A stretch of 64,000 bases of DNA. Source: a virus. Lineage: Duplodnaviria > Heunggongvirae > Uroviricota > Caudoviricetes. The notes under the pieces were generated by a model. The model was not told the DNA's origin. It ran no database searches and was given only the letters and a program-made list of their open reading frames with translations. Each line of letters starts with the position of its first letter. Within the stretch, counting starts at the first letter, position 1. The stretch is taken from positions 1-64,000 of IMG/VR virus record IMGVR_UViG_3300027808_000017; one strand, written 5' to 3'. Positions 1 through 60,802 of the stretch are shown piece by piece. The translations under genes were made by a program, and so were the position numbers.

Positions 1-19
1 TACGAAAGAGCAAAACAAA

Positions 20-442
20 ATGGGACTATTTGATATATTTAAAAAGAAGCCAGTAGAACAGGTCGTAGCACCTGTTAAGGAAAAGAAACCTCGCACTCCC
101 AAAGTAAAAGAACCCATCAAGGAATTATCCGCTAAGGAAAAAGCAACCGCGGCAGGTGAACCTTATGTCAATGTATTGAGTATGGAAATTGATCCTGACA
201 ATATTAATGCAGGTGCATTTGAACTCGACTGGAACGACAAATTCATTCTTAATTTAATAAAAGCGGGTTACAAGATGCGTGACGATGATAAGGATACTGA
301 TTTAGTCGATAGGTGGTTTCAGACAGTGGCCAGAAACATTGCTTTAGAAGTATACGAGCAAGCACAAGCAGATCCAACTAACAGAGATTTACGAGAAATC
401 AAAACACGTGATTTGGGTAACGGGCGCACAGAAGTAAGTTAA
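20..442 (+). CDS. hypothetical protein, Lys/Pro-rich N-terminus
   Basis: 140-aa ORF in track; no recognisable motif. Confidence 0.45.
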   Translation: MGLFDIFKKKPVEQVVAPVKEKKPRTPKVKEPIKELSAKEKATAAGEPYVNVLSMEIDPDNINAGAFELDWNDKFILNLIKAGYKMRDDDKDTDLVDRWFQTVARNIALEVYEQAQADPTNRDLREIKTRDLGNGRTEVS

Positions 443-517
443 AGTATTATAAATTTTGGTTGACAATTAATTGATTCGGTGCTAAACTAACTACTTCTTT
501 ATAGATAGGAGTGACTC

Positions 518-1702
518 ATGGCATATTACTACAAATGGAAAAGTAATAATCAAAAACTTAAATTAGAACCCATTGACAATAAACTCAAACGTGAAAAAAA
601 TACGTTTAAAGTTAAAGATGTTGTTGGACTAACTGATGAATTAAATGATAGGTCCAACTCAGGATGGCATGAAAACATTGCACACTATATTGCAAACAAT
701 ATTTATTTTGAACTTAACAAACGTCCTAAACATGCACAAATAGAATTACGGTTATTGCTTAGTGATGAAGATATTCAGCGACTATTAGACGGCGGTCATT
801 GTGGTGATATTTCAGCACCGGGTGTATTTGATGAGCGCCGATTAAACCCTATCTTTGCAGTAAAACTTCTTAACGAAGATTATTTTCACGTTACTGATGG
901 TCAACATACACTTGCGGTAATTGCTGGCTTGGCAAGAAAAGGTAGATTAAAAATTGATGGCAATATTATTGAATCAAAAGATTGGTTAAGTGTCAAAGTT
1001 GATGTAATGTATGTAGAAAGCGATAGTCTTAGTTTTGCACGTAAACACTTTTTGTATATTAACGGTGAAGGTAAGAAACCCATAGAAGAATACGATAATC
1101 ATGCAGTGAATACATTGTGTGTTCGTTTAGATAGTGATACTGATCCTGATTCTATTAAAGCAGAGGAATTGCAATCTATCGCAGAAGAATACGGTATTAC
1201 TACATTACCTAAAAATCACCCTCAAGCAGAAGAACCCAATGCAGTAACACACATTAGTGGTATGAACAAGATGACTGCTGATGCATGGAGATTCTTGTGT
1301 GCAAATCACGAAAAATATTGGTCGAGCGAAAAAGTTGACAATGCTGAATTTGGTTTATTTGGTGGTCTATATGAACATTGCACTAAACCTAAATCAGGCA
1401 TTCGCACTGATACTAAGGCTTTTATAGAATTTGTACGTGACTTTAATGCTACTGTAAAAGAAGTTTTTGTTAATCCAAATGGATTAAAGGAAGCTACTAC
1501 TGAGGCATATAAAAAATATTCTTTACAAACAGTAAAATATGAAAAGAGTCCTGACAAAACAGTTGCATTAGCATTAATTTTAAAGATTTACAAAATGGCA
1601 GGTGGCACACATACAGTTCCGGGGATTGTAATGGCTCATGCACAAGACGGATATGATGTTACTGATTTTCTCTCAGAAGAAATTAAAGCAAAATTACCAT
1701 GA
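518..1702 (+). CDS. DGQHR-domain protein (DndB-like / ParB-like nuclease superfamily)
   Basis: 394-aa ORF; motif FHVTDGQHTLAVIAG matches the F-x-V-x-DGQH(R/T)-x-x-A core of DndB/DGQHR proteins; RBS GGAG upstream of ATG 518. Confidence 0.55.
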   Translation: MAYYYKWKSNNQKLKLEPIDNKLKREKNTFKVKDVVGLTDELNDRSNSGWHENIAHYIANNIYFELNKRPKHAQIELRLLLSDEDIQRLLDGGHCGDISAPGVFDERRLNPIFAVKLLNEDYFHVTDGQHTLAVIAGLARKGRLKIDGNIIESKDWLSVKVDVMYVESDSLSFARKHFLYINGEGKKPIEEYDNHAVNTLCVRLDSDTDPDSIKAEELQSIAEEYGITTLPKNHPQAEEPNAVTHISGMNKMTADAWRFLCANHEKYWSSEKVDNAEFGLFGGLYEHCTKPKSGIRTDTKAFIEFVRDFNATVKEVFVNPNGLKEATTEAYKKYSLQTVKYEKSPDKTVALALILKIYKMAGGTHTVPGIVMAHAQDGYDVTDFLSEEIKAKLP

Positions 1703-2121
1703 AATGGTTTTATATCATCAAGACTAGCCACAATGATACGCTAGGATTTGGAATTACTGCTCACTTATCTAAACGATTGGTTGATGGTTATTGCAATCCT
1801 AGCGCGGCAAAACAACAATTTTCAAAATTGTATTACGGAGAAAATCTGCATGTCAATCAATTAGAAAAATATATTAAACGTGTGTACAGTAGTAAACGAT
1901 TAAACTTTACTAACACACGTACCCGTAAACTTGAATGGATTGATCCAAAATATGATATTTCTATGCAAGAGTTGATTGAAGTGGTTGAGGATCGTATTGT
2001 AGGATATCCCTTACCGATTAGTCGTGTTAAGGGTAAATTCGTACCATACACACTTGATAATCCTGACGTATTTAGAACTATAACCGAAAATCCTGATTTG
2101 TTTTTAGAAGAAATCACTTGA
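1699..2121 (+). CDS. hypothetical protein
   Basis: 140-aa ORF, ATGA overlap with upstream gene. Confidence 0.45.
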   Translation: MKWFYIIKTSHNDTLGFGITAHLSKRLVDGYCNPSAAKQQFSKLYYGENLHVNQLEKYIKRVYSSKRLNFTNTRTRKLEWIDPKYDISMQELIEVVEDRIVGYPLPISRVKGKFVPYTLDNPDVFRTITENPDLFLEEIT

Positions 2122-2146
2122 CAATATTTAAATATACGTATATAAT
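2118..2146 (+). promoter_or_regulatory. sigma70-type promoter (TTGACA-17-TATAAT) immediately upstream of FEN gene
   Basis: TTGACA 2118-2123, 17-nt spacer, TATAAT 2141-2146; ATG at 2153 is only 7 nt downstream, implying a leaderless transcript. Confidence 0.5.
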
Positions 2147-2152
2147 ACACAC

Positions 2153-3163
2153 ATGACACACAAAACTTACGCACTCATTGATACCGCAAATACCTTCTTC
2201 CGTGCTAGACACGTTGCTAGTCGCAACTCTACATTAGAAGAAAAAATCGGCATGGCCCTACACTTGACACTTGCTAGTGTTAATCAAGCAGTAAGACGCT
2301 ATGGAATTGACCATGTTGTATTTTGCTTGGAGGGGAAATCGTGGAGGAAGGCAGTATACGGTCCTTACAAAAAAAATCGTGTGGTTGATGCAATGTCAGT
2401 CACTGAGGAAGAAAAAGAAGAATCGGCTATGTTTTGGGATACTTACGAAAAGTTTACCACATACATACGAGAGAAAACTAACGTCAGTGTACTCAGGCAC
2501 GAACGGGCTGAGGCTGATGATTTGATTGCCCGTTTTATCCATCTACATCCAAATGACACGCATTATATTATTAGCACTGATTCCGATTATGTTCAGCTTA
2601 TTACTGATAAAGTGTTCCAGTACAATGGAGTCGCAAATGAACTCATCACACTCTCCGGATATCTTAAAGATACGGGTAAGCCGATACTAGATAAGAAAAC
2701 TAAACAGCCTAAATTGTTAGAGGATCCACAGTACTTACTTTTTAAAAAATGTATGAGGGGAGACAGTTCCGACAACGTATTCAGTGCGTATCCGGGTGTG
2801 CGTGAAAAAGGTTCTAAGAATAAGGTTGGTTTGATTGAAGCATACGAAGATAGAATGAAGCAAGGTTTTTCGTGGAACAATCTAATGTTGCAACGCTGGC
2901 TGGACCACGAAAATGTCGAGCATCGGGTTAAAGATGACTATGAACGCAATCGTATGCTGATTGACTTAACTGCACAACCTGACGAGATTAAACAATTGGT
3001 TGATGAATCAATTCACAATGGTGTTCGTACAACTACAACATCTCAAGTTGGTATACACTTTATGAAATTTTGTAACAAATACGAATTGACTAAGCTCAGT
3101 GAACAATCAGAAACATATTCACGGTGGCTTAACAATCCCTATACAGGTGTACTCAATGGATAA
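2153..3163 (+). CDS. 5'-3' exonuclease / flap endonuclease (RNase H, T4 rnh / T5 D15-like)
   Basis: N-terminus YALIDTANTFFRA resembles FEN/PIN N-termini (LLLIDGNSLAYRAFFA-type), 336 aa, acidic clusters typical of FEN active site. Confidence 0.75.
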   Translation: MTHKTYALIDTANTFFRARHVASRNSTLEEKIGMALHLTLASVNQAVRRYGIDHVVFCLEGKSWRKAVYGPYKKNRVVDAMSVTEEEKEESAMFWDTYEKFTTYIREKTNVSVLRHERAEADDLIARFIHLHPNDTHYIISTDSDYVQLITDKVFQYNGVANELITLSGYLKDTGKPILDKKTKQPKLLEDPQYLLFKKCMRGDSSDNVFSAYPGVREKGSKNKVGLIEAYEDRMKQGFSWNNLMLQRWLDHENVEHRVKDDYERNRMLIDLTAQPDEIKQLVDESIHNGVRTTTTSQVGIHFMKFCNKYELTKLSEQSETYSRWLNNPYTGVLNG

Positions 3164-3359
3164 GAAAATTAGAATTAATTTAGCCGGCATTGATGAACTT
3201 GACGAACAAACATTGGGTATGTTGATTGACGGGCTTGTTGAACTATATCAAGAAAAATATGGATTAGATATTTTACTTGACGAACCAGACAAACCCGAGT
3301 ATGATGCAGAGAACTTGGATGTTGTAAAAGATTACTTGAAAAAATTTAGATTACAATGA
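3156..3359 (+). CDS. small highly acidic protein (possible DNA-mimic type)
   Basis: in-frame ATG 3156 (MDKKIRINL...) overlapping end of FEN gene; D/E-rich 67 aa. Confidence 0.35.
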   Translation: MDKKIRINLAGIDELDEQTLGMLIDGLVELYQEKYGLDILLDEPDKPEYDAENLDVVKDYLKKFRLQ

Positions 3360-3838
3360 ATGAGAAAATAACTTATTATAAAAAAGTGGGTCGTAGATAC
3401 AGGGCCGTGTATGAGTACGACCAAAAACTTAGTGATGCATTACCAAAAGGTACTCATCTAATACAGGTTTATCCAGGTGGAAAATTAACACGTTACAATA
3501 TAAACCCTGCACATGCACCAATGATTGCGGCTGGTCGTGTAGCAGAGGATAAGATTAGTGAGGTAATTAGAAAAGCCACTGACATGCGTCCTGCTAGTAA
3601 AGAAACAAAATTAACAGAAGAACAAATACGTTGCTGGAATGAACTAAGCAAAGCGTTTGGTGAAGATAACCACGCATTACAATGGCCCAGTGCTAGGGAA
3701 GCCTGTGAGGAAGCAGTCAAGGCAATGCAAGAGGAAGCAGAAAAACTACTAGCTGTGCCAGCAGTTAGAAAAGCCTATGAACATTTCTTGTTTGTAGCAG
3801 AATTAACCAAGGATACTAAAAATGAATCTAATAGCTAA
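3356..3838 (+). CDS. hypothetical protein
   Basis: 160-aa ORF, ATGA overlap. Confidence 0.45.
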   Translation: MNEKITYYKKVGRRYRAVYEYDQKLSDALPKGTHLIQVYPGGKLTRYNINPAHAPMIAAGRVAEDKISEVIRKATDMRPASKETKLTEEQIRCWNELSKAFGEDNHALQWPSAREACEEAVKAMQEEAEKLLAVPAVRKAYEHFLFVAELTKDTKNESNS

Positions 3839-4283
3839 ACCAATTATTAAAAATCAATATTGGGTAGTCACTGATGGTGACAAAAAAGTTGGTAATGTTA
3901 TTCAAGAGGGTAGTGAATACAAAGTTAAACTCAACAACAAAACTGAACTCTATGATAGCACCAAGGCTATTGAAAAACTTAAGCATATAGAATTTGAGAA
4001 ACTTGCAAAGGTCAAACCCAAGGACACTAGCCCGCCCTTTGCAGTCTTCCCAACAAGTAGGAATAAAATCTATAACAGCATATTAGATGTCAAGCGTAAG
4101 TTACATTTGTACACTACTACCCCAAAAAGCAAGTGTTACTATGTTGCTGGTTGGTTTGCTATCAAGACCGGTGCTGAGTATGTTGCTACTTTTTGTCCTA
4201 AATACATATTTGTTCAACGGTATAATTACAAAGGACCGTTTAACTCTGAGGTCGAAGCAAATAGTAGCATAAATACTCTATGA
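3822..4283 (+). CDS. hypothetical protein
   Basis: 153-aa ORF. Confidence 0.45.
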   Translation: MNLIAKPIIKNQYWVVTDGDKKVGNVIQEGSEYKVKLNNKTELYDSTKAIEKLKHIEFEKLAKVKPKDTSPPFAVFPTSRNKIYNSILDVKRKLHLYTTTPKSKCYYVAGWFAIKTGAEYVATFCPKYIFVQRYNYKGPFNSEVEANSSINTL

Positions 4284-4468
4284 ATCAAATAAAAAAATTT
4301 ATTGATAAAATAACGGTCATAGAAGGACGTCAAGCACGGGAAGTTGTACTTACACTCAATGATGCCAAAGAATTACGTGATGAAATTATGAAAATTCTAT
4401 TGGATAATCGTGAGTACAATAAAGAACCCGAAACTATTAAAGTAGTGATGCAGGGCGGTAAATGGTAA
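4280..4468 (+). CDS. hypothetical protein
   Basis: 62-aa ORF, ATGA overlap. Confidence 0.4.
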   Translation: MNQIKKFIDKITVIEGRQAREVVLTLNDAKELRDEIMKILLDNREYNKEPETIKVVMQGGKW

Positions 4469-6820: not shown

Positions 6821-6850
6821 ACGTGTATTGATTAATTAAAGGAGCTATCA

Positions 6851-7176: not shown

Positions 7177-7206
7177 ACTTGTATTGATTGATTAAAGGAG
7201 CTAGTT

Positions 7207-7468: not shown

Positions 7469-7500
7469 AGACTCTTAGACAGTAAAGAAAAGGAAACGAA

Positions 7501-7909: not shown

Positions 7910-7938
7910 ACTTGTATTGATTGATTAAAGGAGTTGAA

Positions 7939-14608: not shown

Positions 14609-14642
14609 TACATCGTGTAATCAACTATGAATAAATACTAGG

Positions 14643-16304
14643 ATGTTCTCACGAATCTTTTCACTCAGCAATGCCACTCTTTTAGTGGCATTGGCACTTA
14701 GTACTATCGCCGCTTGGTATAGTATTGTTGGTCTAACCGCTATCTTTGCAAGTGCGGTTATACCTATTATCATCATGGGCTCGGCACTTGAACTTGCAAA
14801 AATTATAACAACAGTCTGGTTGCGTAAGTATTGGGATCGTTGTACTTGGGTAATGAAAGTATATCTTGTTCCGGCTGTTATTGCACTTGCAGTATTAACA
14901 AGCATGGGTATTTTTGGTTTCTTATCTAAAGCACACTTAGACCAAGGTGTTATAGGTGGTGATAGTATTGCCCAAGTACAAATTTTAGATGAAAAAATAA
15001 AAACAGCAAAAGAAAATATAGAGTCCAATCGTAAGGCTCTTAAGCAAATGGATGAGGCTGTAGATCAAGTCATGGCACGTTCAGATTCAGAAAAAGGTGC
15101 AGATAAAGCAGTATCTGTTCGTAGAAGTCAGACAAAAGAACGAGTTAGATTACAAAATGAGATTATAGCTGAACAGACAAAAATTGCTAAACTTAACGAA
15201 GAACGAGCTCCTATTGCTTCAGAAGTACGTAAAGTTGAAGCAGAAGTTGGTCCAATCAAATACATTGCGGCATTTATTTATGGAGATAATCCAGATGCTA
15301 ATTTACTTGAACGTGCAGTACGATGGGTAATTATTTTACTTGTTATTGTATTTGACCCTCTTGCAATTATTTTAGTGATTGCGGCTAATCAGAGTAAAGA
15401 TTGGGATAAAGAAATTGAAGATGATAAAAATGCTATGGCTATCATCCCACCCAAAGAAGAAGATACGAGACCCTTTACCGAAGAAGAAATAACAGCATTA
15501 GATAAACCGGTAGAAGAAGTTGATATAGTTCCTGCACCAGAAACTGAACCAAAAGCAACTTGGGCTTTTCCATCTGACCCACAACCCGAATCAGTTGACC
15601 ATTATGTAGCAAACAAATTTACTGAATTTGATCCTAGATATTTGGTTACTAAAGTTATCACTGAAGAAGAATCTAAAGATATAGTGGCTTCTCCGGCATA
15701 CCCTGAAATGTATATCGATTATCAAATAATAGAAGATGTTATTGAAGAAGATTTACCACCTGTCACAAGTTGGGTAGAAATTCCTGAACCAGAAGTAATT
15801 GTAGCAGAGGAAGAAATCAAAGTAGACGATTCTCCTCCTTACGAAGGTATTAGAGATTTAAAAACAGGCCAATGGATACAAACAGGACCTGCAATTATTG
15901 ATCCAACAATAAAATCTACTATGGGTTTTAAAGATTTGGGCGGAGGGTATGTAGAATTTGAAGGCAAGAGAATGGCACTTCATGTTTTAAGAGATAAGCG
16001 TCCTGATTTGTTTGCTATCAGAGAAGACAATCCAAGACAAGTAAAAATTACTTTTGGATCCAAATCAGTTACTGTTGGTTTGATAGGTGATACGTTTATT
16101 CGTACCGATGCTATTCCCCATCGTGTTTTCAAAAGCAATGGTGAAAAATGGATAGAGATTAACAAGAACACAACAGCTACTTACTTAAGTAACACTAATT
16201 ACTTACAACATCTAATGGAAAAAATAGCAACTGGTGAATACGAACCCGACCTTTTAACCGAGTTGGAACAAGAGGCCATTTCAAATCATTTGAATTCAGC
16301 TTGA
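14643..16304 (+). CDS. multi-TM membrane protein with coiled coil and long acidic C-terminal domain
   Basis: 553 aa; ~3 N-terminal TM helices, coiled coil, further TM (VIILLVIVFDPLAIILVIAA), acidic tail. Confidence 0.55.
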   Translation: MFSRIFSLSNATLLVALALSTIAAWYSIVGLTAIFASAVIPIIIMGSALELAKIITTVWLRKYWDRCTWVMKVYLVPAVIALAVLTSMGIFGFLSKAHLDQGVIGGDSIAQVQILDEKIKTAKENIESNRKALKQMDEAVDQVMARSDSEKGADKAVSVRRSQTKERVRLQNEIIAEQTKIAKLNEERAPIASEVRKVEAEVGPIKYIAAFIYGDNPDANLLERAVRWVIILLVIVFDPLAIILVIAANQSKDWDKEIEDDKNAMAIIPPKEEDTRPFTEEEITALDKPVEEVDIVPAPETEPKATWAFPSDPQPESVDHYVANKFTEFDPRYLVTKVITEEESKDIVASPAYPEMYIDYQIIEDVIEEDLPPVTSWVEIPEPEVIVAEEEIKVDDSPPYEGIRDLKTGQWIQTGPAIIDPTIKSTMGFKDLGGGYVEFEGKRMALHVLRDKRPDLFAIREDNPRQVKITFGSKSVTVGLIGDTFIRTDAIPHRVFKSNGEKWIEINKNTTATYLSNTNYLQHLMEKIATGEYEPDLLTELEQEAISNHLNSA

Positions 16305-17017: not shown

Positions 17018-18048
17018 AATACATATTGCTTGCGGTGATGCTGGCCCTAACAGCATGTGCTAGCACTACTGAGGCTGTAAGAACTTCAAGCGATAGTCCC
17101 GATGCTGGGGTCATACGTGTTCTCGGCACAGGATCAACTAAAGAAGAGGCAAAGAATAACGGCTTCACTACTGCTATCGAAATTGCTGTTGGTTCTGCAA
17201 TTCTTTCACACAAAGATGTCCGTTCCGATAAACTTATACGTGATGACATAGTGAAATACAATGCAGGTTACGTTGATAATTATAAAATCATTGACGAGAC
17301 AAAAACAAGCGGTGGTTACTCATTGTTGATGGATGTTCATGTTAAGAGCAGTCGCATACATGAACGATTATTGAGTGGGGGCGGTGACGAGAAAAATGTC
17401 AACGGTGATAAATTGGCTACTCAATATGACACATATCGTGCCCAACAAGAATCAGCCGATAAACTCATTGATGTGTTAATACAAGATTGGCCCGAAAAAG
17501 CCTTTACTATCAAACAAGGTAAACAAGAATTTAGTATTAATGAAAAACGTGTGTCTGTATTACGAATTCCAATTGAAATGAATATGAACTATAGCTATAT
17601 TATGGCATTGGATGAGTCTCTTAAAAAGATTAACCAAAAGAAAACATATTCAGATTTAAAAATTGGTATTGCAGTTAAAGCACCCGATGATTGGGTATTC
17701 GGTAGAACCAATGGATATTTCTTTGATGACATTCAACGTATAAAACAATTCCAACAAGGGTTTAATGATAACTTTTGGATTCAAGTTCATTTAAAAGATA
17801 TTAATGGTAATTTACTGTATTCTCAGTGTTTTGAACATGGAAGAAGTTTTTCATACCAAACAACTAAGGCATTTATTTTACAAGGTAATAACTCCGTAGA
17901 TTCTAACATTGAAATTGAACTAAATTCAAAACTATCCAAGACATTGCGCCAAGCATATAGTGTAGAAATGGTTCCCTCTAGAGTTTGTATCAACAAAATA
18001 TACGAAACTATACCTCTGCTAAAATGTCCCCCGCTAAACAAAAAATGA
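17014..18048 (+). CDS. lipoprotein
   Basis: MKYILLAVMLALTACAS lipobox; ATGA-coupled. Confidence 0.55.
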   Translation: MKYILLAVMLALTACASTTEAVRTSSDSPDAGVIRVLGTGSTKEEAKNNGFTTAIEIAVGSAILSHKDVRSDKLIRDDIVKYNAGYVDNYKIIDETKTSGGYSLLMDVHVKSSRIHERLLSGGGDEKNVNGDKLATQYDTYRAQQESADKLIDVLIQDWPEKAFTIKQGKQEFSINEKRVSVLRIPIEMNMNYSYIMALDESLKKINQKKTYSDLKIGIAVKAPDDWVFGRTNGYFFDDIQRIKQFQQGFNDNFWIQVHLKDINGNLLYSQCFEHGRSFSYQTTKAFILQGNNSVDSNIEIELNSKLSKTLRQAYSVEMVPSRVCINKIYETIPLLKCPPLNKK

Positions 18049-18059
18049 TAAGTAATAAT

Positions 18060-19283
18060 ATGACCGAAGAATCTAAAATAAATTATTGTCACTTTTGTGG
18101 GAACAGCAAAGAAATTGTAAAAAAACTTGTTGTTAGTGAGAAGGTTGCTATATGCAATGAGTGCGTGGAACTATGTCAGAATCTAATCAATGATGAAGTA
18201 GAGCCAGAAAATCCGATTGAACCTAATCGTGATCCGGAGGCCATCAAAGAATATCTTGATATGCACGTTGTTGGTCAAGAAGATGCTAAGATAGTTTTGA
18301 GCGTTGCTGTTGCCAATCATTATAAGCGCATCAACAATCCACCAAAAGATATTGAAATACAAAAAGGTAATGTGTTGATTGTCGGGCCTACAGGAAGTGG
18401 TAAAACATTGCTTGCTAAGACAGCCGCAAAATATCTTAAAGTGCCCTTCATTGTTGCTGATGCTACGAGTTTGACAGAAGCCGGGTATGTTGGAGATGAT
18501 GTTGAATCAATGATTAGTATGTTGATTCATGCCGCAGGTGGTGATGTAAAATTAGCCGAGCGTGGTATTATATTTGTTGATGAAATTGACAAGATTGCAC
18601 GTAAAGGTGAAAGTGCAAGTATCACCCGTGACGTATCAGGTGAAGGTGTTCAACAAGCATTGCTCAAAATGGTAGAAGGTAGTACCGTTCGTATTCCCAA
18701 AGAGGGTGGTCGTAAACATCCTGGTGGCGATATGAGTGAAATCAATACCAAAGATATATTGTTTATTGCCGGTGGCGCATTTGTTGGTCTTAAAGACATT
18801 ATTGCTAATCGTATGAATGGTACAAGTATTGGATTTAATGCTACTATCACTGACAGCAAAGTTGAAGGTGATTTGACAAAAGTCAGTCCTGATGACTTAA
18901 CCAAATATGGAATGATTCCTGAGTTCATTGGACGTTTTACTACTACAGTAAGTATCCAAGAATTGTCTAAGAAACAATTGGTTCATATTTTGACAGATGT
19001 AAAGAACAATTATATCAGTCAATACAAGTATTTGCTAAGTTTGGATAATATCAATTTATCTTTTACTAAAGAAGCCCTTGAACAAATTGCTGAGAATACA
19101 CTAACATTAAAGACCGGAGCACGTGGTTTACATACTGAGATTGAACGTGTTTTAATGTGTCATATGTTCTATACCAAGCAATACAAAGAAAATAATATAA
19201 CTATGCTAAATATAGATGTGGGTCAAATTTTAAATCCCACACCAATATATGACGAAAAAAGGAAGACAGGTACTAGTAACTGA
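18060..19283 (+). CDS. clpX: ATP-dependent Clp protease ATP-binding subunit ClpX
   Basis: N-terminal C4 zinc finger CHFCG...CNEC; Walker A GPTGSGKTLLAKT; ClpX-like length; start set at MTEESKINYCHFCG (track ORF starts further upstream). Confidence 0.85.
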   Translation: MTEESKINYCHFCGNSKEIVKKLVVSEKVAICNECVELCQNLINDEVEPENPIEPNRDPEAIKEYLDMHVVGQEDAKIVLSVAVANHYKRINNPPKDIEIQKGNVLIVGPTGSGKTLLAKTAAKYLKVPFIVADATSLTEAGYVGDDVESMISMLIHAAGGDVKLAERGIIFVDEIDKIARKGESASITRDVSGEGVQQALLKMVEGSTVRIPKEGGRKHPGGDMSEINTKDILFIAGGAFVGLKDIIANRMNGTSIGFNATITDSKVEGDLTKVSPDDLTKYGMIPEFIGRFTTTVSIQELSKKQLVHILTDVKNNYISQYKYLLSLDNINLSFTKEALEQIAENTLTLKTGARGLHTEIERVLMCHMFYTKQYKENNITMLNIDVGQILNPTPIYDEKRKTGTSN

Positions 19284-19470
19284 TGGTAATGTTGAAAAAG
19301 CATTACGTAAGTTTAAGAAAAAAATTGCAGAGCAAGGTCTACTGCAAGAAGTCCGCGACCGTCAAGAGTTCGTTAAACCCACAGTCAAACGCAAAATTGC
19401 CAAGAGCAAAGCAAAGAGTAGATGGAAGAAACATCTACGAGACCAAGAATTACCCAAAAAACTATATTAA
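19249..19470 (+). CDS. rpsU: 30S ribosomal protein S21
   Basis: VLVTDGNVEKALRKFKKKIAEQGLLQEVRDRQEFVKPTVKRK aligns with bacterial S21 ([43 protein letters not shown]); overlaps clpX 3' end. Confidence 0.75.
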   Translation: MTKKGRQVLVTDGNVEKALRKFKKKIAEQGLLQEVRDRQEFVKPTVKRKIAKSKAKSRWKKHLRDQELPKKLY

Positions 19471-19573
19471 CCTAAATAGTTGTATATATTGCACAATCAT
19501 GTAAAATATATACTGTAGTAGATGCCTAACGGGTCTATTACAACACAATCTTGCTTTAACAAAGGAGAAAATT

Positions 19574-21490
19574 ATGAGCAAAGTAATCGGTATCGACCTA
19601 GGTACCACAAATTCATGTGTAGCCGTCATTGAAAACGGAATCCCCAAAGTAATTGAAAACAGCGAAGGTGCTAGAACTACACCCTCAATCGTTGCCTATG
19701 CCAACGATGAGATTCTTGTAGGTGCTAGTGCTAAACGTCAAGCAGTTACTAATCCAAAAAATACAATCTACGCCGCAAAGCGACTGATTGGTCGTAAATT
19801 CAAAGAAGAGGCTGTACAAAAAGATATTAACTTGATGCCGTATACCATCGTTGAAAATGACAATGGTGATGCATGGGTTCAGTTAAACGATAATAAGTTA
19901 GCACCCCCGCAGATTTCAGCGGAAGTCTTACGCAAGATGAAAAAGACTGCGGAAGATTATCTAGGTCATGAAGTTACACAAGCAGTTATTACTGTTCCCG
20001 CTTATTTTAATGATAGTCAAAGACAAGCGACAAAAGATGCAGGTAAAATTGCAGGCTTGGAAGTATTGCGTATCATTAACGAACCCACAGCAGCCGCATT
20101 AGCGTATGGTGTAGATAAACAGGAAAAGCGTGACCGTAAAGTTGCTGTATATGACTTAGGTGGTGGTACCTTTGACGTATCAATCATTGAGATTGCCAAC
20201 GTTGATGGTGACACACAAGTTGAAGTATTGTCAACAAATGGCGATACATTCTTGGGTGGTGAAGACTTTGACCAACGCATCATGGACTACTTGATTAGTG
20301 AATTCAAAAAGGATTCAGGAGTCGATTTAAGTAAAGACATGCTAGCACTGCAACGACTAAAAGAAGCCGCAGAAAAGGCTAAGATTGAGTTGTCAAGTAC
20401 AGCACAAACAGATGTTAACTTACCATATGTAACAGCAGATGCTAGCGGTCCTAAGCACATGAACATTAAGTTGTCACGTAGCAAATTGGAACAGTTAGTT
20501 GATGAATTGATTCAACGCAGTATTCAACCATGTAAGACAGCTATGGCTGATGCTAAGATTTCAATAAGTGATATTGACGAGGTTATTCTTGTTGGTGGTA
20601 TGACACGTATGCCTAAAGTACAAGAAATGGTTGAATCATTTTTTGGTAAAGCACCTCGCAAGGACGTTAACCCGGATGAGGCAGTTGCCGCTGGTGCCGC
20701 TATTCAGGGTGATGTATTAGGTGGTGGACGCACAGATGTTTTATTGCTTGATGTTACTCCATTGAGTCTTGGCATTGAAACAATGGGTGGTGTGATGAGT
20801 AAGTTGATTCAAAAGAATACAACTATTCCTACTAAACAAAGTCAAACATTCAGTACAGCAGAAAACAATCAACAAGCGGTTACTATTAAAGTATTCCAAG
20901 GTGAACGTGAAATTGCACAATACAACAAGTTGCTAGGTGATTTTAACTTAGATGGAATTCCACCAGCACCAAAAGGTATGCCTCAAATCGAAGTTACATT
21001 TGATATTGATGCTAACGGCATTATGCACATCGGTGCAAAGGACAAAGGTACTGGTAAGGAAAACAAAATCACTATTAAATCAAACAGTGGTTTGAGTGAA
21101 TCAGAGATTCAAGAAATGGTTAAAGATGCTGAATTGAATGCTGAATCTGACAAGAAAGCCCGTGAATTAATTGAGGCACGTAATGGTGCAGAATCAACAT
21201 TGTATGGATTCAAACAAGACTTTAATAAGTACAGTGACAAAGTTACTGAAGAAGAAAAAACTAAAGCCGAAGAAGCAATCAAAGCAGTTGAAGAAGCAAT
21301 CAACGGGGATGACCCAACCGTTATCCAAGATAGTATTCCTAAATTATATGAGGCAATTGGTCCAATCACTAAAGCTAAAAGTGATGAAGAAGCCAAGAAA
21401 AAGGCTGAAGAGGCAACTAAGACTACAGAAGCACCAAAAGATGACAATGTAGTTGATGCAGAAGTTAAAGAGTCACCGGAGACTGTTTAA
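19574..21490 (+). CDS. dnaK: chaperone DnaK (Hsp70)
   Basis: [18 protein letters not shown]..., full-length Hsp70 (638 aa); RBS AAAGGAG. Confidence 0.9.
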
Positions 21491-23944: not shown

Positions 23945-23963
23945 AAGAGATAAATACATTACT

Positions 23964-25457
23964 ATGAGAGCAATTGAATTTTTAAAAGAATCCCAAGGTG
24001 GTATATTCCGCCGTGCCCAAGAGGTTGACCAAGGTGCGGAAATCAAGTTTAAAAACGCGGAAACAAACCAAGAAATTAAACTACTGTCAGCAGAAGTATT
24101 TCCTCAAACTGGACAATACCAAACATATGAAGAATTAGACCAAGCAGTTACTGATTTTTGTACTATGTTTGAAGTTCCACCGGAGAACGTTCAGTATGCA
24201 GGTAAACCAGATAAATCACGTGCCGCAATGGTAAGTATTTGGACGGATTTAACATCAGGTGAACCAATGGCGTTTGTTAAACTTGCTACAAAACGTAGTG
24301 AAGGTGCTTCACCTATTATGCAGAGTAATGCTGATTTTAAGAATGCGTTTGGTTATGGAGATGTAGGTAAGACAGCACAACGTCAAACATTACAATTAAA
24401 ACCAAAAGACGTATTAGCATTTGATGAATGGTTAAATCCACAAGGTGTTATACGCAGTGTTACTAGCAGATTGAAAACTAGAAGTGACCTAGACGAAAAC
24501 CTGAAGCAAGGATTAGTACAGCTTGTAACTAATGTTGCCCAAGGTGTCAGTGAGCCTGTGCCGGGTATGGCACAATATTTAACAACGTTAGAAGTTGATT
24601 ACGGTGAGGTACCTGCCCCTATTGCGTTAATTACAGGTAATTTTGTAGGAGGAGACTATCTGCAAGCCGAAAAAGGATTATTAGGTCCATTAGGTTTAAA
24701 ATGGAGCGATTTATCAAAAATATTGTATCCCAAGGCCGGGGGCGAAAAGATTTATGATAGTTACATTTATATTGATGAAGAAACCAAACTTAAAGTAAGT
24801 TCAAAAGATAAAAAAGGCGGCGCAGCCGCTAGTATTACTGGATTAATTGATGAAATTAACAAAACACCAGAAAAATTTCAAAGTGTATTACTTAATAAAA
24901 AATTCGGCTCTTTACTTAATATATGTAGGACAATTGCTAGCGCACCAAATACATATCAAGGAAGTGCAAAAAAGAGTAGCAAAAGTATAAATGGCCCTTT
25001 AATTTTAGCTGTAAATACTTTTAAATTTATTGACGACAATGATGCTAGAACAATTGTAGGGTTGATGAACTCCCCAAATAATAAAATGATGCCAGAACAA
25101 GCATACAAAAAAAATGTCATTGGTCCTAATTTATGGAAGATAATTTCAGTTAAAGGTGCCAATTATAAGGACCCGGGATATAATTTAGGTTATCATGTAA
25201 TGGCATGTGTTGCAAAAAATATTGCTAATATATGTAATAGCGATCCAAATACTGATAAATTTTTTAGGTCTATTTTGGAAAGATCCAACATGGTACAAGT
25301 TAAAACTACAGTTAAAAAATCCGGTGACGGGGCGGCATTTACTAATTTTGTTGTAATGTATCCTCCGGTCTTCGATGGCAAAATGACTATGCATGCGGAT
25401 AACAATTATATGGCGACACGAAAGCCAATCGCACCATTAAGTTTCAAAATGCCTTAA
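23964..25457 (+). CDS. hypothetical protein (497 aa)
   Basis: N-terminus MRAIEFLKES resembles N-terminus of 863-aa protein at 46123. Confidence 0.5.
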   Translation: MRAIEFLKESQGGIFRRAQEVDQGAEIKFKNAETNQEIKLLSAEVFPQTGQYQTYEELDQAVTDFCTMFEVPPENVQYAGKPDKSRAAMVSIWTDLTSGEPMAFVKLATKRSEGASPIMQSNADFKNAFGYGDVGKTAQRQTLQLKPKDVLAFDEWLNPQGVIRSVTSRLKTRSDLDENLKQGLVQLVTNVAQGVSEPVPGMAQYLTTLEVDYGEVPAPIALITGNFVGGDYLQAEKGLLGPLGLKWSDLSKILYPKAGGEKIYDSYIYIDEETKLKVSSKDKKGGAAASITGLIDEINKTPEKFQSVLLNKKFGSLLNICRTIASAPNTYQGSAKKSSKSINGPLILAVNTFKFIDDNDARTIVGLMNSPNNKMMPEQAYKKNVIGPNLWKIISVKGANYKDPGYNLGYHVMACVAKNIANICNSDPNTDKFFRSILERSNMVQVKTTVKKSGDGAAFTNFVVMYPPVFDGKMTMHADNNYMATRKPIAPLSFKMP

Positions 25458-28073: not shown

Positions 28074-28106
28074 AGAATCTTAAACAGTAAAGAAAAGGAC
28101 TTGCAA

Positions 28107-28591: not shown

Positions 28592-28625
28592 AGAATCTTA
28601 AACAGTAAACAACAGGAGTTAGCAA

Positions 28626-41772: not shown

Positions 41773-41802
41773 TTGACAATCATGTGCAAAGTATGATACT
41801 AT
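41773..41802 (+). promoter_or_regulatory. sigma70-type promoter with extended -10
   Basis: TTGACA, ~18-nt spacer, TGaTACTAT; ATG 41809 only ~7 nt downstream. Confidence 0.4.
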
Positions 41803-41808
41803 TATATT

Positions 41809-42336
41809 ATGAAATTAAACATGCCACATTTATACCTAGACATGGACGGTGTCCAAGCAGACTTATTCACCGAAGTAGCACATAGATGCGGAGTCAAACA
41901 TTGGGATGATATACCAGATCATGATGAAGTTTTTAACAAACTAAGTTTACAAGGCCCAGAGGTTGCCTATGAATTATTTCGTGTATTGAAACCATTATCC
42001 GGTGGACAAGTTATTGTCAACTGGCTACATGATAGCAAAATACCGTTCACTGTATTAAGTGCCCCATTACGCAATGAAGGTGATGCAAGTGTTAGGGCAA
42101 AACGTGATTGGCTAGATGAGTTTAATCCCGGAACCAGTCAAAATGCTATCTTTACTAAACGCAAATTCAAATATGCAATATCAGATGGACAACCTAATGT
42201 ACTAGTAGATGACTTTAACTATTATCTAAACAGTTGGGCAGAAGCCGGTGGTATTGCAGTCAAGCATAGTGATGCAACTACTGAACATACCATAATGCAG
42301 TTGAACAAAATCTATAAGCCTTATCTAAATAACTAA
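41809..42336 (+). CDS. 5'(3')-deoxyribonucleotidase-like HAD phosphatase
   Basis: HAD motif I LYLDMDGVQADLF near N-terminus (cf. DMDGVLAD of dNT-type nucleotidases). Confidence 0.55.
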   Translation: MKLNMPHLYLDMDGVQADLFTEVAHRCGVKHWDDIPDHDEVFNKLSLQGPEVAYELFRVLKPLSGGQVIVNWLHDSKIPFTVLSAPLRNEGDASVRAKRDWLDEFNPGTSQNAIFTKRKFKYAISDGQPNVLVDDFNYYLNSWAEAGGIAVKHSDATTEHTIMQLNKIYKPYLNN

Positions 42337-42957: not shown

Positions 42958-42986
42958 TTGACAGTAATTGGGCTTTAGTCTATAAT
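42958..42986 (+). promoter_or_regulatory. sigma70-type promoter
   Basis: TTGACA-17-TATAAT. Confidence 0.55.
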
Positions 42987-43018
42987 ATGTACATGTTCAA
43001 CACTATGACTCACACATT

Positions 43019-43408
43019 ATGACTATGCATCTTGAGGGCCCATGGCTCAGTCTTGGCGGCAAACGTAAAGGCAAGGTTAAGTTCCGCAATGCTGAACAAG
43101 CAAAGAAAGCAAGAGAATTGGAAGAATCTTGGAAAGAAATGCTGAAACGCCAAGGCGTTGAAGCCGAAGAAAAGAAACGTGCTAAGGCACTTAAGGCTCC
43201 TACACTTACATATAAATTGTCTGCACCTCCAGGACGTGAGACACAAAAAATCAAAAGTCTAAGCACACCCGGTGGTTCTACTGCCGCTGTTCACAAAGTG
43301 TACACTGGTGACAAAATCATTGGTATCGCTACTATGCACAAATCAAATGCTGTGCCTGTGTTTAGCAATGAACAAGCGGTAGAAATTTCAAGGATGCGCC
43401 GTGGCTAG
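43019..43408 (+). CDS. hypothetical basic protein (G+C-richer)
   Basis: 129 aa. Confidence 0.45.
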   Translation: MTMHLEGPWLSLGGKRKGKVKFRNAEQAKKARELEESWKEMLKRQGVEAEEKKRAKALKAPTLTYKLSAPPGRETQKIKSLSTPGGSTAAVHKVYTGDKIIGIATMHKSNAVPVFSNEQAVEISRMRRG

Positions 43409-43664: not shown

Positions 43665-43880
43665 ATGGCAAAAGAAGAGGGTATTAAAATGGACGGCAAG
43701 GTAGTAGATGTACTACCTAATGCCGTTTTTAAAGTAGTAATGGAAGCTGGTCCTATCATAACAGGATACATCAGCGGCCGCATGCGTAAGCATGATATTA
43801 AAATTTTATTGGGTGATACTGTTGAAGTTGAATTCAGCCCATATGATTTGACTAAAGGTCGTATAACCCGTAGACGGTAA
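43665..43880 (+). CDS. infA: translation initiation factor IF-1
   Basis: 71 aa S1-like OB fold: [63 protein letters not shown] aligns end-to-end with bacterial IF-1. Confidence 0.85.
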
Positions 43881-43923
43881 GTTGTAACAGTATTGTCACA
43901 TATATCCCAATAAATATGGGTAT

Positions 43924-44808
43924 ATGCAAAAAACTTACCGCAGTATTTTCATTAGCGATGTACACTTAGGTACAAAAGATTGTCAAGCAGGAAAATTAAA
44001 CAATTTCCTCAAGCACAATTCGTGCGATACCCTATATCTTGTGGGTGATATAATTGATGCATGGAAAATACAACAAAACAAATGGCGTTGGAAACAATCA
44101 CACACCAACGTAGTACGCAGAGTATTAGGTCATGCCAAGCGTGGCACTAAAGTAATATTCATTGCAGGCAATCACGATGAATTCTTAAGACCAATGATAC
44201 CCTATGGTTTCAGTTTTGGCTTAATAGAAATACACAATCAAATAGAGCATATAGGTGCAGACGGTAAACATTATCTTGTCACTCACGGAGACATGTTTGA
44301 TGGCCTTACAAGACTAGCACCCTGGTTATCATTCTTAGGAGACAAAGCATATGATTTCATTCTTAGCCTCAATAGCAAACTTGCTTGGATTCGTCGCCGT
44401 ATGGGTTTTGGGTACTTTAGCCTTAGCCGTTTTCTTAAGCACAGGGTCAAAAAAGCAGTAGATTTTATTTTTAAGTTTGAAGAAAACTTAGCTAAGTATT
44501 GCAAGAAGCGTGGATTTGATGGAGTGATATGCGGTCACATACATCACGCAGAAATAAAAGATATAGATGGTGTAACTTATATGAATGACGGTGATTGGGT
44601 AGAGAGTTGTACTGCGCTAGTAGAACATCATGATGGTCGTTGGGAAATAATAACTTGGACACAGGAGAGTGACAATGTGGATAATGATATTGATAGCAGT
44701 ACACGTGAACAACCCACAGGATCAACCAGGAAGAATAGAACTGACATTCAACGACCAAAAGAGTTGCGAACAAGCGTTGTTGACAATGAAGTACGAATTA
44801 AAATTTAA
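43924..44808 (+). CDS. LpxH-family metallophosphoesterase
   Basis: ISDVHLG, GDIIDAW, AGNHDEF, THGD, CGHIHH, DGDW - same motif order as LpxH; acidic C-terminal extension. Confidence 0.55.
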   Translation: MQKTYRSIFISDVHLGTKDCQAGKLNNFLKHNSCDTLYLVGDIIDAWKIQQNKWRWKQSHTNVVRRVLGHAKRGTKVIFIAGNHDEFLRPMIPYGFSFGLIEIHNQIEHIGADGKHYLVTHGDMFDGLTRLAPWLSFLGDKAYDFILSLNSKLAWIRRRMGFGYFSLSRFLKHRVKKAVDFIFKFEENLAKYCKKRGFDGVICGHIHHAEIKDIDGVTYMNDGDWVESCTALVEHHDGRWEIITWTQESDNVDNDIDSSTREQPTGSTRKNRTDIQRPKELRTSVVDNEVRIKI

Positions 44809-45549: not shown

Positions 45550-45574
45550 TGTAAGTTGCGATAAATACTCTACT

Positions 45575-46126
45575 ATGTACGATATTGTAGAGAAAATCAG
45601 TGAATCCAGAACAAAAAAATTAGAGATAGTCAAGCTATCCTATGACCTTTCCGACCTCAATCCAGTATTAAGCAAAAAGACAATGGATTATCACTATGGG
45701 GATTTAGCCCATGGATATGCATCCCGATACAACAAGGGTGAGGGTGACAAAGATTTCAATTATGCGGGTGCTTTCCTGCACAACATTTATTTTCCGCAGT
45801 TTCGCAAAATACAAGAAGATAACACTCCTAACGGTCCTGTACTAGGAATCATTAAGCGTAAGTACGATTGGTGGAGAGATTTTAAAGAACAATTCAAACA
45901 AGAAGCCATGAAGATACAGGGTAGTGGTTGGATTTATATGAGTTATACAGGTGAGATAAAGACTATTGTTAACCACGAGGTTCGTGAAGATATTCTTATT
46001 CTAGTTGACTGGTGGGAACATGCTTGGGCCTTAGACTATCAAGCAGATAAAAAAGGTTACTTAGAAAACATTTGGAAGATAATGAACTGGAGTCACATCA
46101 ATACCCGCTGGGGGAAGAATTTATGA
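45575..46126 (+). CDS. Fe/Mn superoxide dismutase homolog
   Basis: SKKTMDYHYGDLAHGY ~ QTMEIHHTKHHQTY; GSGWIYM ~ GSGWAWL; DWWEHAWALDYQ...IWKIMNW ~ DVWEHAYYLKFQ...FWNVVNW. Confidence 0.6.
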   Translation: MYDIVEKISESRTKKLEIVKLSYDLSDLNPVLSKKTMDYHYGDLAHGYASRYNKGEGDKDFNYAGAFLHNIYFPQFRKIQEDNTPNGPVLGIIKRKYDWWRDFKEQFKQEAMKIQGSGWIYMSYTGEIKTIVNHEVREDILILVDWWEHAWALDYQADKKGYLENIWKIMNWSHINTRWGKNL

Positions 46127-49018: not shown

Positions 49019-49078
49019 CTACGCAGTTATGATAGAATAATAATGCACACAACCGGGTGCACCTAGATAAATACTTGT

Positions 49079-49675
49079 ATGAAAAACAAATATGGTCTAA
49101 GTAAGGTGTGCTTTTTTTGTGAATCTAGTTTTATAACTAAACCTAGATTTATAGATTACTGTTCACAAAAATGTAAAAATCCTCTTAACAGGGGAGAATA
49201 TGATCCCTGGAATAAAGGTATCAAACTTACAGATGAACAAAAAGCAAAACAAAATACAGACGGGCTCAAAAAAGGATGGGGATGGAACAAGGGCGGAACT
49301 AATGAAGCGGCACGCCAGCGTATGCTAGTCAATAATCCAAATAAAGATGGAAGGTTAAACAATCTTAGACCAAAAAATCCAATTACAGAACCCCTTAAAA
49401 TATATCGTAGTAAGGTTAGGTACCATACATATAGAACTCTTAAAGAAATGAGAGCAAACGGTGAGTGGGTTCCAAAAACTGGTAAGTATAAAGACAGTTG
49501 GCAAATTGACCATATTATTCCACACAAACAAGGTTTTGAATTAAGAATAGATCCTTCAGTACTTGGTGGAAAAAAGAATATACAATTTATTAAAGGCGAA
49601 GAAAACAGAAAAAAATGGGATAGTTATCAACCCATTGAAATAGTAGAGTCTATTACAGGAGGTAATTATGTATAG
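49079..49675 (+). CDS. putative HNH endonuclease
   Basis: N-terminal Cys cluster CFFC...C..C; WQIDHIIPHKQG...N...N consistent with HNH core. Confidence 0.45.
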   Translation: MKNKYGLSKVCFFCESSFITKPRFIDYCSQKCKNPLNRGEYDPWNKGIKLTDEQKAKQNTDGLKKGWGWNKGGTNEAARQRMLVNNPNKDGRLNNLRPKNPITEPLKIYRSKVRYHTYRTLKEMRANGEWVPKTGKYKDSWQIDHIIPHKQGFELRIDPSVLGGKKNIQFIKGEENRKKWDSYQPIEIVESITGGNYV

Positions 49676-54161: not shown

Positions 54162-54194
54162 TTGTTACTCCTTGTTTCGACTGTTTAAGATTCT

Positions 54195-54228: not shown

Positions 54229-54360
54229 TTACTGTTCCATCGGATCATTAAGAATATATTCGGAAATATATTCTACTACAAAAGTTTTACCTTTGTGCAA
54301 TTTGAGATATTCACCTAGGGACTCTGCACTGCGAAAAATATAACTGTTAATGCGAAACAT
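54229..54360 (-). CDS. small early protein (43 aa, not in ORF track)
   Basis: MFRINSYIFRSAESLGEYLKLHKGKTFVVEYISEYILNDPMEQ after UTR ...TTGATTGATTAAAGGAGTGTAT. Confidence 0.4.
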   Translation of the reverse strand: MFRINSYIFRSAESLGEYLKLHKGKTFVVEYISEYILNDPMEQ

Positions 54361-54380
54361 ATACACTCCTTTAATCAATC

Positions 54381-54409
54381 AATAAAAGTATTATATACCC
54401 GAATCCATT
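54381..54409 (-). promoter_or_regulatory. sigma70-type early promoter (family member, minus strand)
   Basis: revcomp TTGACA-ATAAATGGATTCGGGTA-TATAAT. Confidence 0.65.
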
Positions 54410-56626: not shown

Positions 56627-56659
56627 TTTTGATTCCTTTAATCAACTGTTTAAGATTAT

Positions 56660-57203: not shown

Positions 57204-57235
57204 TTCGTTTCCTTTTCTTTACTGTCTAAGATTCT

Positions 57236-58074: not shown

Positions 58075-58227
58075 TTAGTACTCACTCTTTTTATGTTTTG
58101 GTGTGCGGCGATATGCAATTTTGCTTTGCACAACCTTGGGTTTGAACGGTGTATTTTCTTGAAACAATACACGATGGGCCCTGTGTTTGGGCTGTTCAAT
58201 TTTGAAAGATAAGAGTTCTTTTTTCAT
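58075..58227 (-). CDS. small highly basic protein (50 aa)
   Basis: MKKELLSFKIEQPKHRAHRVLFQENTPFKPKVVQSKIAYRRTPKHKKSEY; ATG 7 nt from -10. Confidence 0.4.
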   Translation of the reverse strand: MKKELLSFKIEQPKHRAHRVLFQENTPFKPKVVQSKIAYRRTPKHKKSEY

Positions 58228-60763: not shown

Positions 60764-60802
60764 ATTATGATGATAACATGAAACCTAATTAAAGTCAATT
60801 AT

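Follow-up and report, generated by a model that had tools for sequence, protein, structure and literature searches.

The window analyzed here, that is, the whole 64,000-nt stretch comprising positions 1–64,000 of IMGVR_UViG_3300027808_000017, comes from an uncultured giant phage (Caudoviricetes). We propose that a defined subset of genes in the clade of this phage is probably expressed from leaderless or near-leaderless mRNAs, for which RNA polymerase would start at the A of the ATG or within 0–3 nt of it. The subset would include at least five genes behind promoters of the host sigma-70 type, which code for a FEN nuclease, a GIY-YIG-domain protein, a basic 50-aa protein, a 5'-deoxynucleotidase-like protein and a 92-aa protein, and probably some seven more that are preceded by a TAAATA motif similar to the late promoter of T4. 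Four of these genes had been pointed out in an initial annotation of the same DNA, according to which the ATG directly follows the −10 hexamer and leaves no Shine–Dalgarno sequence (SD). This geometry was confirmed at all four sites, with a distance of 6 nt between the −10 and the ATG (7 nt for the 50-aa protein), and the gene for the 92-aa protein is a fifth candidate that the initial annotation did not contain. The promoters and open reading frames (ORFs) are as follows.

2118–2146, plus strand: FEN promoter, with TTGACA at 2118–2123, a 17-nt spacer and TATAAT at 2141–2146 (12 of 12 consensus positions).
2153–3163, plus strand: FEN (5'-3' exonuclease) gene, 336 aa, with the ATG after acacac, 6 nt past the −10, and no SD.
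62648–62676, minus strand: promoter of the GIY-YIG gene, with TTGACA at 62676–62671, a 17-nt spacer and TATAAT at 62653–62648 (12 of 12 consensus positions).
62303–62641, minus strand: GIY-YIG-domain gene, 112 aa, with the ATG at 62641 after acttac, 6 nt past the −10, and no SD.
58235–58263, minus strand: promoter of the 50-aa ORF, with TTGACA at 58263–58258, a 17-nt spacer and a TG-extended TATACT at 58240–58235 (11 of 12 consensus positions, with TG).
58075–58227, minus strand: basic 50-aa ORF, with the ATG at 58227 after aaaggct, 7 nt past the −10, and a weak DUF7230 / phrog_6310 match.
41773–41802, plus strand: nucleotidase promoter, with TTGACA at 41773–41778, an 18-nt spacer and a TG-extended TACTAT at 41797–41802 (the weakest of these first four).
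41809–42336, plus strand: 5'-deoxynucleotidase-like gene, 175 aa, with the ATG after tatatt, 6 nt past the −10.
60770–60798, minus strand: promoter of the 92-aa ORF, with TTGACT, a 17-nt spacer and a TG-extended TATCAT (10 of 12 consensus positions, with TG).
60485–60763, minus strand: 92-aa ORF, with the ATG at 60763 after cataat, 6 nt past the −10.

Promoters of this early type form a family in the window: when up to one mismatch is allowed, 22 copies of TTGACA-N17-TATAAT are present, compared with 1.46 copies expected from shuffled sequences, and the extended form TTGACAATAAATnnnnTTnGGGTATATAAT is common to most of the copies. The distances that separate the start codons from the −10 have a bimodal distribution. 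Five genes lie at 6–8 nt and lack an SD, approximately 20 lie at 26–38 nt and all carry AAGGA or AAGGAG, and no window gene is found at 9–17 nt. An SD is present for 89 of the 134 predicted genes of the window, whereas the 20 nt upstream of the short-spacing starts, which consist of the promoter itself, contain no SD of at least 4 nt at a usable distance. With 23 strong promoters in the window alone, 0.2 ATGs of long ORFs would be expected by chance at offsets 6–7, and at least 3 were seen (P ~0.001).

The same pattern was observed in relatives of the window. Related contigs in IMG/VR number in the hundreds, and several are 340–365 kb in length; a search of the phage collection found no close relative of the window at the DNA level among sequenced phages. 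Among 439 distinct strong-promoter contexts pooled from 473 related loci, the distance was 6 nt in 80, 7 nt in 26 and 9 nt in 12, compared with 9 contexts in the whole 10–22-nt range and 212 at 29–34 nt; these proportions are biased in that the loci were chosen around short-spacing genes, but the empty zone is unaffected. Additional short-spacing families are present in the flanks of the related loci. All 119 distinct short-spacing upstream sequences have a pyrimidine at −1, an A at +4 and ATG as the start codon. By comparison, the control gene p129, which has the same promoter type, possesses leaders of 22–34 nt, normally with an SD, and often starts with TTG; the 6-nt spacing occurs in 1 of its 52 promoter-bearing upstream sequences.

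Start codons other than AUG function poorly at the 5' end of an mRNA in E. coli. Transcription from sigma-70 promoters starts most often at the seventh base past the −10, with a purine favored at +1 and a pyrimidine at −1, and starts located more than 1 bp upstream or more than 2 bp downstream of this modal site are rare (PMC5730371). Because the modal start is the seventh base, a 6-nt spacer puts the predicted +1 on the A of the ATG, and with spacers of 7 and 9 nt the transcript is predicted to begin on the A itself or 1–3 nt before it. The established signature of leaderless genes is a −10 that adjoins the ORF, no ribosome-binding site and the exclusive use of AUG (PMC12340547, PMC3160421). 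An unstructured 5' end and a CA-rich downstream sequence favor leaderless translation (PMC9031893), and the lambda cI complex shows stacking between A1493 and the A at +4 (PMC10491246). As judged from the DNA, the leaderless mRNAs suggested in the initial annotation are well supported by the A at the predicted +1, the absence of an SD, the use of ATG only and the conservation of the geometry.

For FEN, the reading frame is closed by a TAA at 2129, 24 nt upstream of the ATG, and no ATG, GTG or TTG precedes position 2153, which is thus the sole possible start. The alignment to Pfam 5_3_exonuc_N begins at residue 7 of the protein. In relatives, 30 of 49 distinct sequences upstream of FEN have TA[TC]A[AC]T followed by 6 nt and the ATG, and the number of residues ahead of the conserved LID sequence varies from 4 to 7, indicating that in-frame insertions and deletions can occur directly behind the ATG, whereas the stretch from the −10 to the ATG does not tolerate them. 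The predicted 5' end is CA-rich (AUGACACACAAAAC), and the first 50 nt of the mRNA are unstructured, with a minimum free energy of 0.0 (99th–100th percentile of the 134 gene starts, depending on the measure). The TGA of the upstream ORF (2119–2121) falls within the −35 hexamer of FEN, which is one of two cases in which the upstream stop is embedded in TTGACA itself.

The GIY-YIG gene retains the 6-nt distance in all 42 distinct upstream sequences of its relatives, even though these contain ten different 6-nt spacers and vary also in the flanks and in the spacer between the −35 and the −10. Across the first 15 codons, of which 34 distinct sequences were compared, variable columns in codons 2–15 number 3, 2 and 11 at the first, second and third codon positions, respectively, and no alternative in-frame start is found. 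Public pipelines call a 112-aa product with the same start. The mRNA 5' end has a folding energy of −0.7 kcal/mol (80th–95th percentile of the gene starts, again depending on the measure). The use of internal Met codons as the true starts, which the initial annotation had named as the outcome that would overturn its proposal, is excluded for FEN and GIY-YIG by the frame, the domain boundary, the codon variation and the insertions and deletions described above.

Relatives of the 50-aa ORF have the ATG 6, 7 or 9 nt past the −10 in 49 of 49 distinct upstream sequences, with no SD in the upstream sequences listed; position −1 is occupied by T in 47 of them and by C in the other 2. The window copy has an AAGG in its spacer, which is not conserved and is separated from the ATG by just 3 nt. 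As to the nucleotidase, the loci L242 and L253 share the promoter structure of the window, while other lineages have TTGGCT, a 17-nt spacer, TATAAT, 6 nt and an ATG that opens an in-frame N-terminal extension, and still further lineages have ATAAATA followed by ATGATG. The structure of its mRNA 5' end is average among the gene starts. The assignment of 41809 as the true nucleotidase start is less firm than the corresponding assignments for FEN and GIY-YIG. The 92-aa ORF keeps the arrangement of −10, 6 nt and ATG in four of six related lineages.

A second motif, ATAAATACT, occurs nine times in the window, compared with 1.6 copies expected. Together with its ATAAATA variants it is always located upstream of genes, either 4–7 nt before an SD-less ATG (4280, 14643, 23471, 23964, 43924, 45575 and 49079) or 16–34 nt upstream of a gene with an SD. 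Genes in the first arrangement include the following.

4269–4468, plus strand: 62-aa ORF, with ATAAATACT and the ATG at 4280, 4 nt past ATAAATA, overlapping the upstream stop (ATGA).
14631–16304, plus strand: 553-aa ORF, with ATAAATACT and the ATG at 14643, 5 nt past ATAAATA; no SD.
23950–25457, plus strand: 497-aa gene, with ATAAATA, 7 nt and the ATG at 23964; no SD.
43910–44808, plus strand: metallophosphoesterase gene, with ATAAATA, 7 nt and the ATG at 43924; no SD.
45561–46126, plus strand: 183-aa ORF, with ATAAATACT and the ATG at 45575, 7 nt past ATAAATA; no SD.
49067–49675, plus strand: 198-aa gene, with ATAAATA at 49067–49073, 5 nt and the ATG at 49079; no SD; the best-supported gene of this class.

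In the family of the last gene, the order (A/T/C)TAAATA, 5 nt and ATGAAA is invariant in approximately 36 distinct upstream sequences, whose proteins share 51–100% amino acid identity, and none of these sequences contains an SD. The metallophosphoesterase gene has ATAAATA, 7 or 4 nt and ATG in the related loci L163 and L243. The late promoter of T4, TATAAATA, is similar to the TAAATA motif. T4 late transcripts start approximately 6 bases after TATAAATA. If the analogy holds, the genes abutted by TAAATA would be leaderless genes of a later temporal class. We also considered whether the −10 or TAAATA might act as an AT-rich ribosome-binding signal, and rejected this idea on the ground that both elements also occur 16–38 nt upstream of SD-bearing genes.

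Two observations were made beside these genes. A GC-rich, partly palindromic element (GGTGCACC, GGGTGCGCC or GGGCGCACC) is located approximately 4–6 nt upstream of the TAAATA motif of the 198-aa gene in nearly all relatives (window 49040–49066 and loci L464–L522), and it may be an activator or −35-like element of the TAAATA promoter class. The 183-aa ORF (45575–46126) overlaps an 863-aa ORF (46072–48663) in which a GNAT acetyltransferase domain at the N-terminus is fused to a ParB N-terminal domain, an unusual combination, and the gene boundaries there need checking.

From what is known of leaderless mRNAs, ribosomes would recognize the 5'-terminal AUG by means of fMet-tRNA and initiation factor 2 (IF2), without SD pairing or ribosomal protein S1. 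Read-through transcripts plausibly cover these genes as well, since the upstream genes are co-directional and no terminator-like site was found between them and the short-spacing promoters. Inside such a transcript the same AUG would be internal and would lack an SD. Efficient translation would then be limited to transcripts that originate at the adjacent promoter, and the timing of protein production would be locked to that promoter, with the upstream stop, the promoter and the start codon packed into approximately 35 nt. Tight timing or a low dosage is plausible for such genes, because three of the five early-type genes code for nucleic-acid or nucleotide enzymes (FEN, GIY-YIG and nucleotidase).

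Several points weigh against this proposal. Leaderless mRNAs are weakly translated in gammaproteobacterial model systems. The +1 is predicted by the sigma-70 rule, and the host may have an RNA polymerase and ribosomes with different preferences. Family counts such as 42 of 42 for GIY-YIG refer to distinct upstream sequences, and many of the loci are closely related, so that the number of independent events is overstated. The first 50 nt of the mRNA of the 50-aa ORF are structured (−7.5 kcal/mol), and its 9-nt spacing in many relatives predicts a leader of approximately 3 nt, rather than none. The nucleotidase has a weak promoter and a second in-frame ATG at 41821, 12 nt downstream (codon 5). 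For the TAAATA motif, a promoter function is suggested by the T4 analogy and the positions of the motif only. Finally, the other 19 of the 49 FEN upstream sequences have a leader of approximately 30 nt, and 17 of these 19 contain no SD-like tetramer, indicating that FEN is SD-independent across the clade whether it is leaderless or not.

The relatives in which the FEN start does not abut the promoter (L007, L011, L030, L037–L041, L045, L052–L057, L060–L062, L064, L068, L071, L077 and L080) have features of their own. The −10 hexamer is often bracketed by an inverted repeat, e.g., GAGTAACATGTG-TATAATAA-CACATGTTACTC, whose arms differ by lineage yet remain complementary. The old gacacATG junction is often still recognizable in the relatives with leaders of approximately 30 nt, as if a cassette of approximately 24 nt had been inserted between the −10 and the ATG. 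The FEN promoter also marks a boundary on its upstream side. The locus L002 is 99.3% identical to the window downstream, and the similarity is lost exactly at the FEN −35 element (2116), which makes the promoter a junction of mosaic segments. Unrelated DNA in L002 replaces positions 443–2117 of the window, with a 394-aa ORF (518–1702) and a GIY-YIG/T5orf172-like ORF (1699–2121), the latter of which is probably a homing endonuclease gene.

The genes could instead be translated mainly from longer polycistronic transcripts, by SD-independent initiation, reinitiation or 70S scanning. The upstream stop is located 31–58 nt away, the promoter adjoining the ATG would mainly serve the downstream genes, and its position would reflect compaction. 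The co-directional upstream genes without an intervening terminator-like site fit this explanation as well, as do the frequent coupling suggested by approximately 20 other SD-less window genes that overlap the upstream stop (ATGA) and the mostly SD-less FEN homologues with leaders of approximately 30 nt. In addition, IF1 has been reported to strongly stimulate 70S scanning (PMC9031893), and the phage encodes an IF-1 homologue of its own (described below). Compaction leaves unexplained, however, why a distance of 6 nt (6–9 nt) is fixed while the neighboring sequence, N-terminus included, gains and loses bases, why distances of 10–22 nt are nearly absent, and why the pyrimidine at −1 and the ATG start are constant. 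Moreover, 70S scanning as described still needs an SD at the downstream site (PMC9031893). We therefore regard translation from polycistronic transcripts as an unlikely main route.

The initial annotation also noted that the phage encodes its own ribosomal protein S21 and IF-1 and suggested a link to leaderless initiation. Homologues of both are indeed present in the window, as listed here together with a mini-ORF at the head of the IF-1 operon.

19249–19470, plus strand: ribosomal protein S21 homologue, 73 aa, with no SD, overlapping the 3' end of a ClpX-like gene.
43665–43880, plus strand: IF-1 homologue, 71 aa, with 56% identity to E. coli InfA; it belongs to the operon that the promoter at 42958 heads.
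42958–43022, plus strand: promoter-abutting mini-ORF, with a perfect promoter at 42958–42986, 6 nt and nine codons (42993–43022, MFNTMTHTL).

According to the suggested link, the phage S21 and/or IF-1 would remodel host ribosomes specifically to favor the leaderless mRNAs of the phage, which we consider rather improbable. None of the present results ties either gene to the leaderless set. Apart from the presence of both genes, the suggestion can draw on the stimulation of leaderless translation by IF1 together with IF2 in vitro, where IF3 is inhibitory (PMC9031893), and on the fact that the IF-1 operon itself starts with a promoter-abutting mini-ORF. A precedent is phiYS40, which combines leaderless middle and late mRNAs with a shifted balance of IF2 and IF3 (PMC3594737). 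However, E. coli ribosomes without bS21 and uS2 are the ones that favor the leaderless lambda cI mRNA (PMC10491246), and IF1 stimulates leaderless, canonical and 70S-scanning initiation alike, so that its presence does not discriminate between them (PMC9031893). The use of SDs by 89 of the 134 genes also argues against a specific role. Since approximately two thirds of the window genes use SDs, the phage S21 could equally serve SD-led initiation, and the phage IF-1 could serve reinitiation, because approximately 20 SD-less genes overlap the upstream stop as ATGA.

A broader possibility, to which we give a similarly low probability, is that two regimes operate side by side, one SD-led and one using 5'-terminal AUGs, with IF-1 and perhaps S21 shifting ribosomes between them. 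For instance, 70S-type initiation might be boosted on 5'-terminal AUGs, together with reinitiation at ATGA overlaps. The 5'-terminal AUG would in that case be served by both host-type and T4-late-like promoters in a clade with genomes of approximately 350 kb. If true, this would be the first phage known to have an initiation factor matched to a dedicated set of leaderless genes.

The TGA of the mini-ORF overlaps the ATG (43019) of an SD-less 129-aa gene (43019–43408), the head of the IF-1 operon. The arrangement is conserved in L162 and L163, and more distant relatives have a normal leader with an SD. The 129-aa gene of the window has lost the SD that most relatives carry. In its place there is a short upstream ORF that ends in a TGA overlapping the main ATG. 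Such a short upstream ORF, with the pattern CTATG-N12-ATGAC and five codons, is found in L162, L163, L167, L168, L171, L178, L198, L232 and L238, and in the window and its two closest relatives the frame extends to the ATG 6 nt past the −10 (nine codons). The mini-ORF and the 129-aa gene may together form a natural leaderless device for bicistronic coupling. Approximately 20 of the 45 SD-less window genes overlap the upstream stop by 1, 4 or 8 nt, mostly as ATGA; these frequent overlaps suggest that termination–reinitiation coupling is a third common mode of initiation in this phage.

IF-1 is widespread in the clade. The S21 gene belongs to a host-like cluster for protein homeostasis and translation (18024–21490), which consists of the ClpX-like ATPase gene (18024–19283), S21 (with a 35-nt overlap) and a full-length DnaK/Hsp70 gene (19574–21490; Pfam E = 5e-260). 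Scans against family libraries covered approximately 20 window proteins. Neither Rfam families nor tRNA genes were found in the window. We tried to deduce the host from S21, but rejected this approach: the best "bacterial" matches (56–61%) are on small contigs of metagenome-assembled genomes (MAGs) and are probably mis-binned phage DNA, and the remaining matches (≤50%) come from many phyla. The contigs of these best matches (L402 and L403) are 5–11 kb long and were binned into Polynucleobacter and Chitinophagales MAGs from one study, which is at best a weak hint at the host. TTGACA/TATAAT promoters and strong SDs do not fit Bacteroidetes hosts. Both are present here, and membership in the same group as the Bacteroidetes S21 phages (Chen et al., PMC9723584) was accordingly rejected; the location of S21 between ClpX-like and DnaK-like genes, and not among structural genes, also argues against it.

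The last explanation to be weighed is that the juxtapositions are due to chance or annotation artefacts, with unused promoter-like strings or internal true starts; AT-rich DNA indeed yields many weak promoter-like matches (23 compared with 14.7 expected in positions 1–4000) and the weak nucleotidase site is followed by a second ATG, but the promoters with 12 of 12 and 11 of 12 consensus positions belong to the 22-member family (1.46 expected), the chance probability is approximately 0.001 in the window alone, internal starts are excluded for FEN and GIY-YIG, and the geometry is kept in hundreds of relatives, a comparison that already contradicts this explanation and makes it highly improbable.

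Discussions of leaderless translation usually concern Actinobacteria, Deinococcus-Thermus, archaea, mitochondria and a few repressors of temperate phages. The leaderless initiation proposed here, which sequence comparison supports well, would be a known kind of gene expression in a new and well-conserved setting. What is unusual is a conserved minority of probably leaderless genes in a large clade of phages of the lytic type whose other genes have strong SDs behind the same promoters. The SD-led genes are an internal control, that is, a natural contrast by which the benefit of a 5'-terminal AUG could be assessed, be it promoter-locked timing, control of nuclease dosage or insensitivity to leader-mediated control. 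Comparing leaderless with SD-led mRNAs of the phage, in the presence and absence of its own factors, would also provide a handle on why giant phages carry S21 and IF-1. In practice, software that calls genes or predicts promoters in metagenomic phages should permit starts that abut a promoter.

T4-type phages carry cassettes of a promoter and a stem-loop that are recombination modules. In the window, the 26–38-nt leaders behind early-type promoters comprise two conserved sequence families. The type A leader, acttgtATTGATTGATTAAAGGAG, is found at 6821–6850, 7177–7206, 7910–7938 and 54360–54389, and the type B leader, agaatcTTAAACAGTAAAGAAAAGGA, at 7469–7500, 28074–28106, 28592–28625, 57204–57235, 56627–56659 and 54162–54194. 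Promoter and leader look like repeated cassettes, which might be recognized by a translational regulator or might be modules for recombination. Any control exerted through these leaders would not reach leaderless genes.

Among phages, leaderless genes have been described for lambda (cI), for Thermus phages and for phages of hosts that use leaderless genes widely. Lambda cI transcribed from PRM is similar to the genes described here in that a phage gene without an SD is expressed from a host sigma-70 transcript that begins at the AUG (a predicted start in the present case) and has an A at +4. In addition, cI (AUGAGCACAAAA; PMC10491246) and FEN (AUGACACACAAAAC) are both A/C-rich after the AUG. 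However, cI is a single gene for the low-level maintenance of a repressor in lysogens and has a weak, activator-dependent promoter, whereas the present phage is an apparently lytic giant phage with several such candidate genes, promoters of consensus strength and a second promoter class with the same geometry.

The Thermus phages phiYS40 and P23-45 are likewise large and lytic, and a whole class of their transcripts (middle and late) is leaderless (PMC3594737). A shift in host factors, with IF2 up and IF3 down, is proposed to favor the leaderless mRNAs of phiYS40 (PMC3594737). Most of its middle and late genes are leaderless, in contrast to a predicted share of approximately 10% of the genes here, the rest of which have strong SDs; the factors would be phage-encoded IF-1 and S21 here, in place of the altered host IF2 and IF3 of phiYS40. 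The Thermus host lineage itself uses leaderless genes widely (PMC12340547). Deinococcus-Thermus and Actinobacteria show the same placement of the −10 a few bp upstream of the start without a ribosome-binding site (PMC12340547, PMC3160421, PMC4007540). In these bacteria the −35 is weak or dispensable and 20–60% of the genes are leaderless, whereas the phage genes have a full TTGACA-17-TATAAT and constitute a conserved minority beside SD-led genes behind the same promoter family.

As for other giant phages, transcripts have been mapped for phiKZ and PA5oct, both jumbo phages of Pseudomonas. Differential RNA sequencing of phiKZ found no leaderless transcript (PMC8244752). PA5oct uses the host RNA polymerase and TTGAC/TATAATA promoters (PMC7318152). 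By protein, the closest cultured homologues of the window FEN are those of PA5oct (49% identical) and of Rak2-like phages (45–47%). The PA5oct gene is preceded by an ordinary leader, and few consensus promoters, none abutting a gene start, occur in the first 50 kb of the PA5oct genome; PA5oct was accordingly rejected as a model with RNA-seq data.

The T4 genes e, soc, I-TevI and 49 are translated only from late-promoter transcripts, a hairpin hiding the SD in the long transcripts. The logic proposed for the leaderless genes of the present clade is the same, i.e., a read-through transcript that would be untranslatable and an own-promoter transcript that would be translatable. The difference is that these genes have no SD at all, and their translatability would come from the 5'-terminal AUG.

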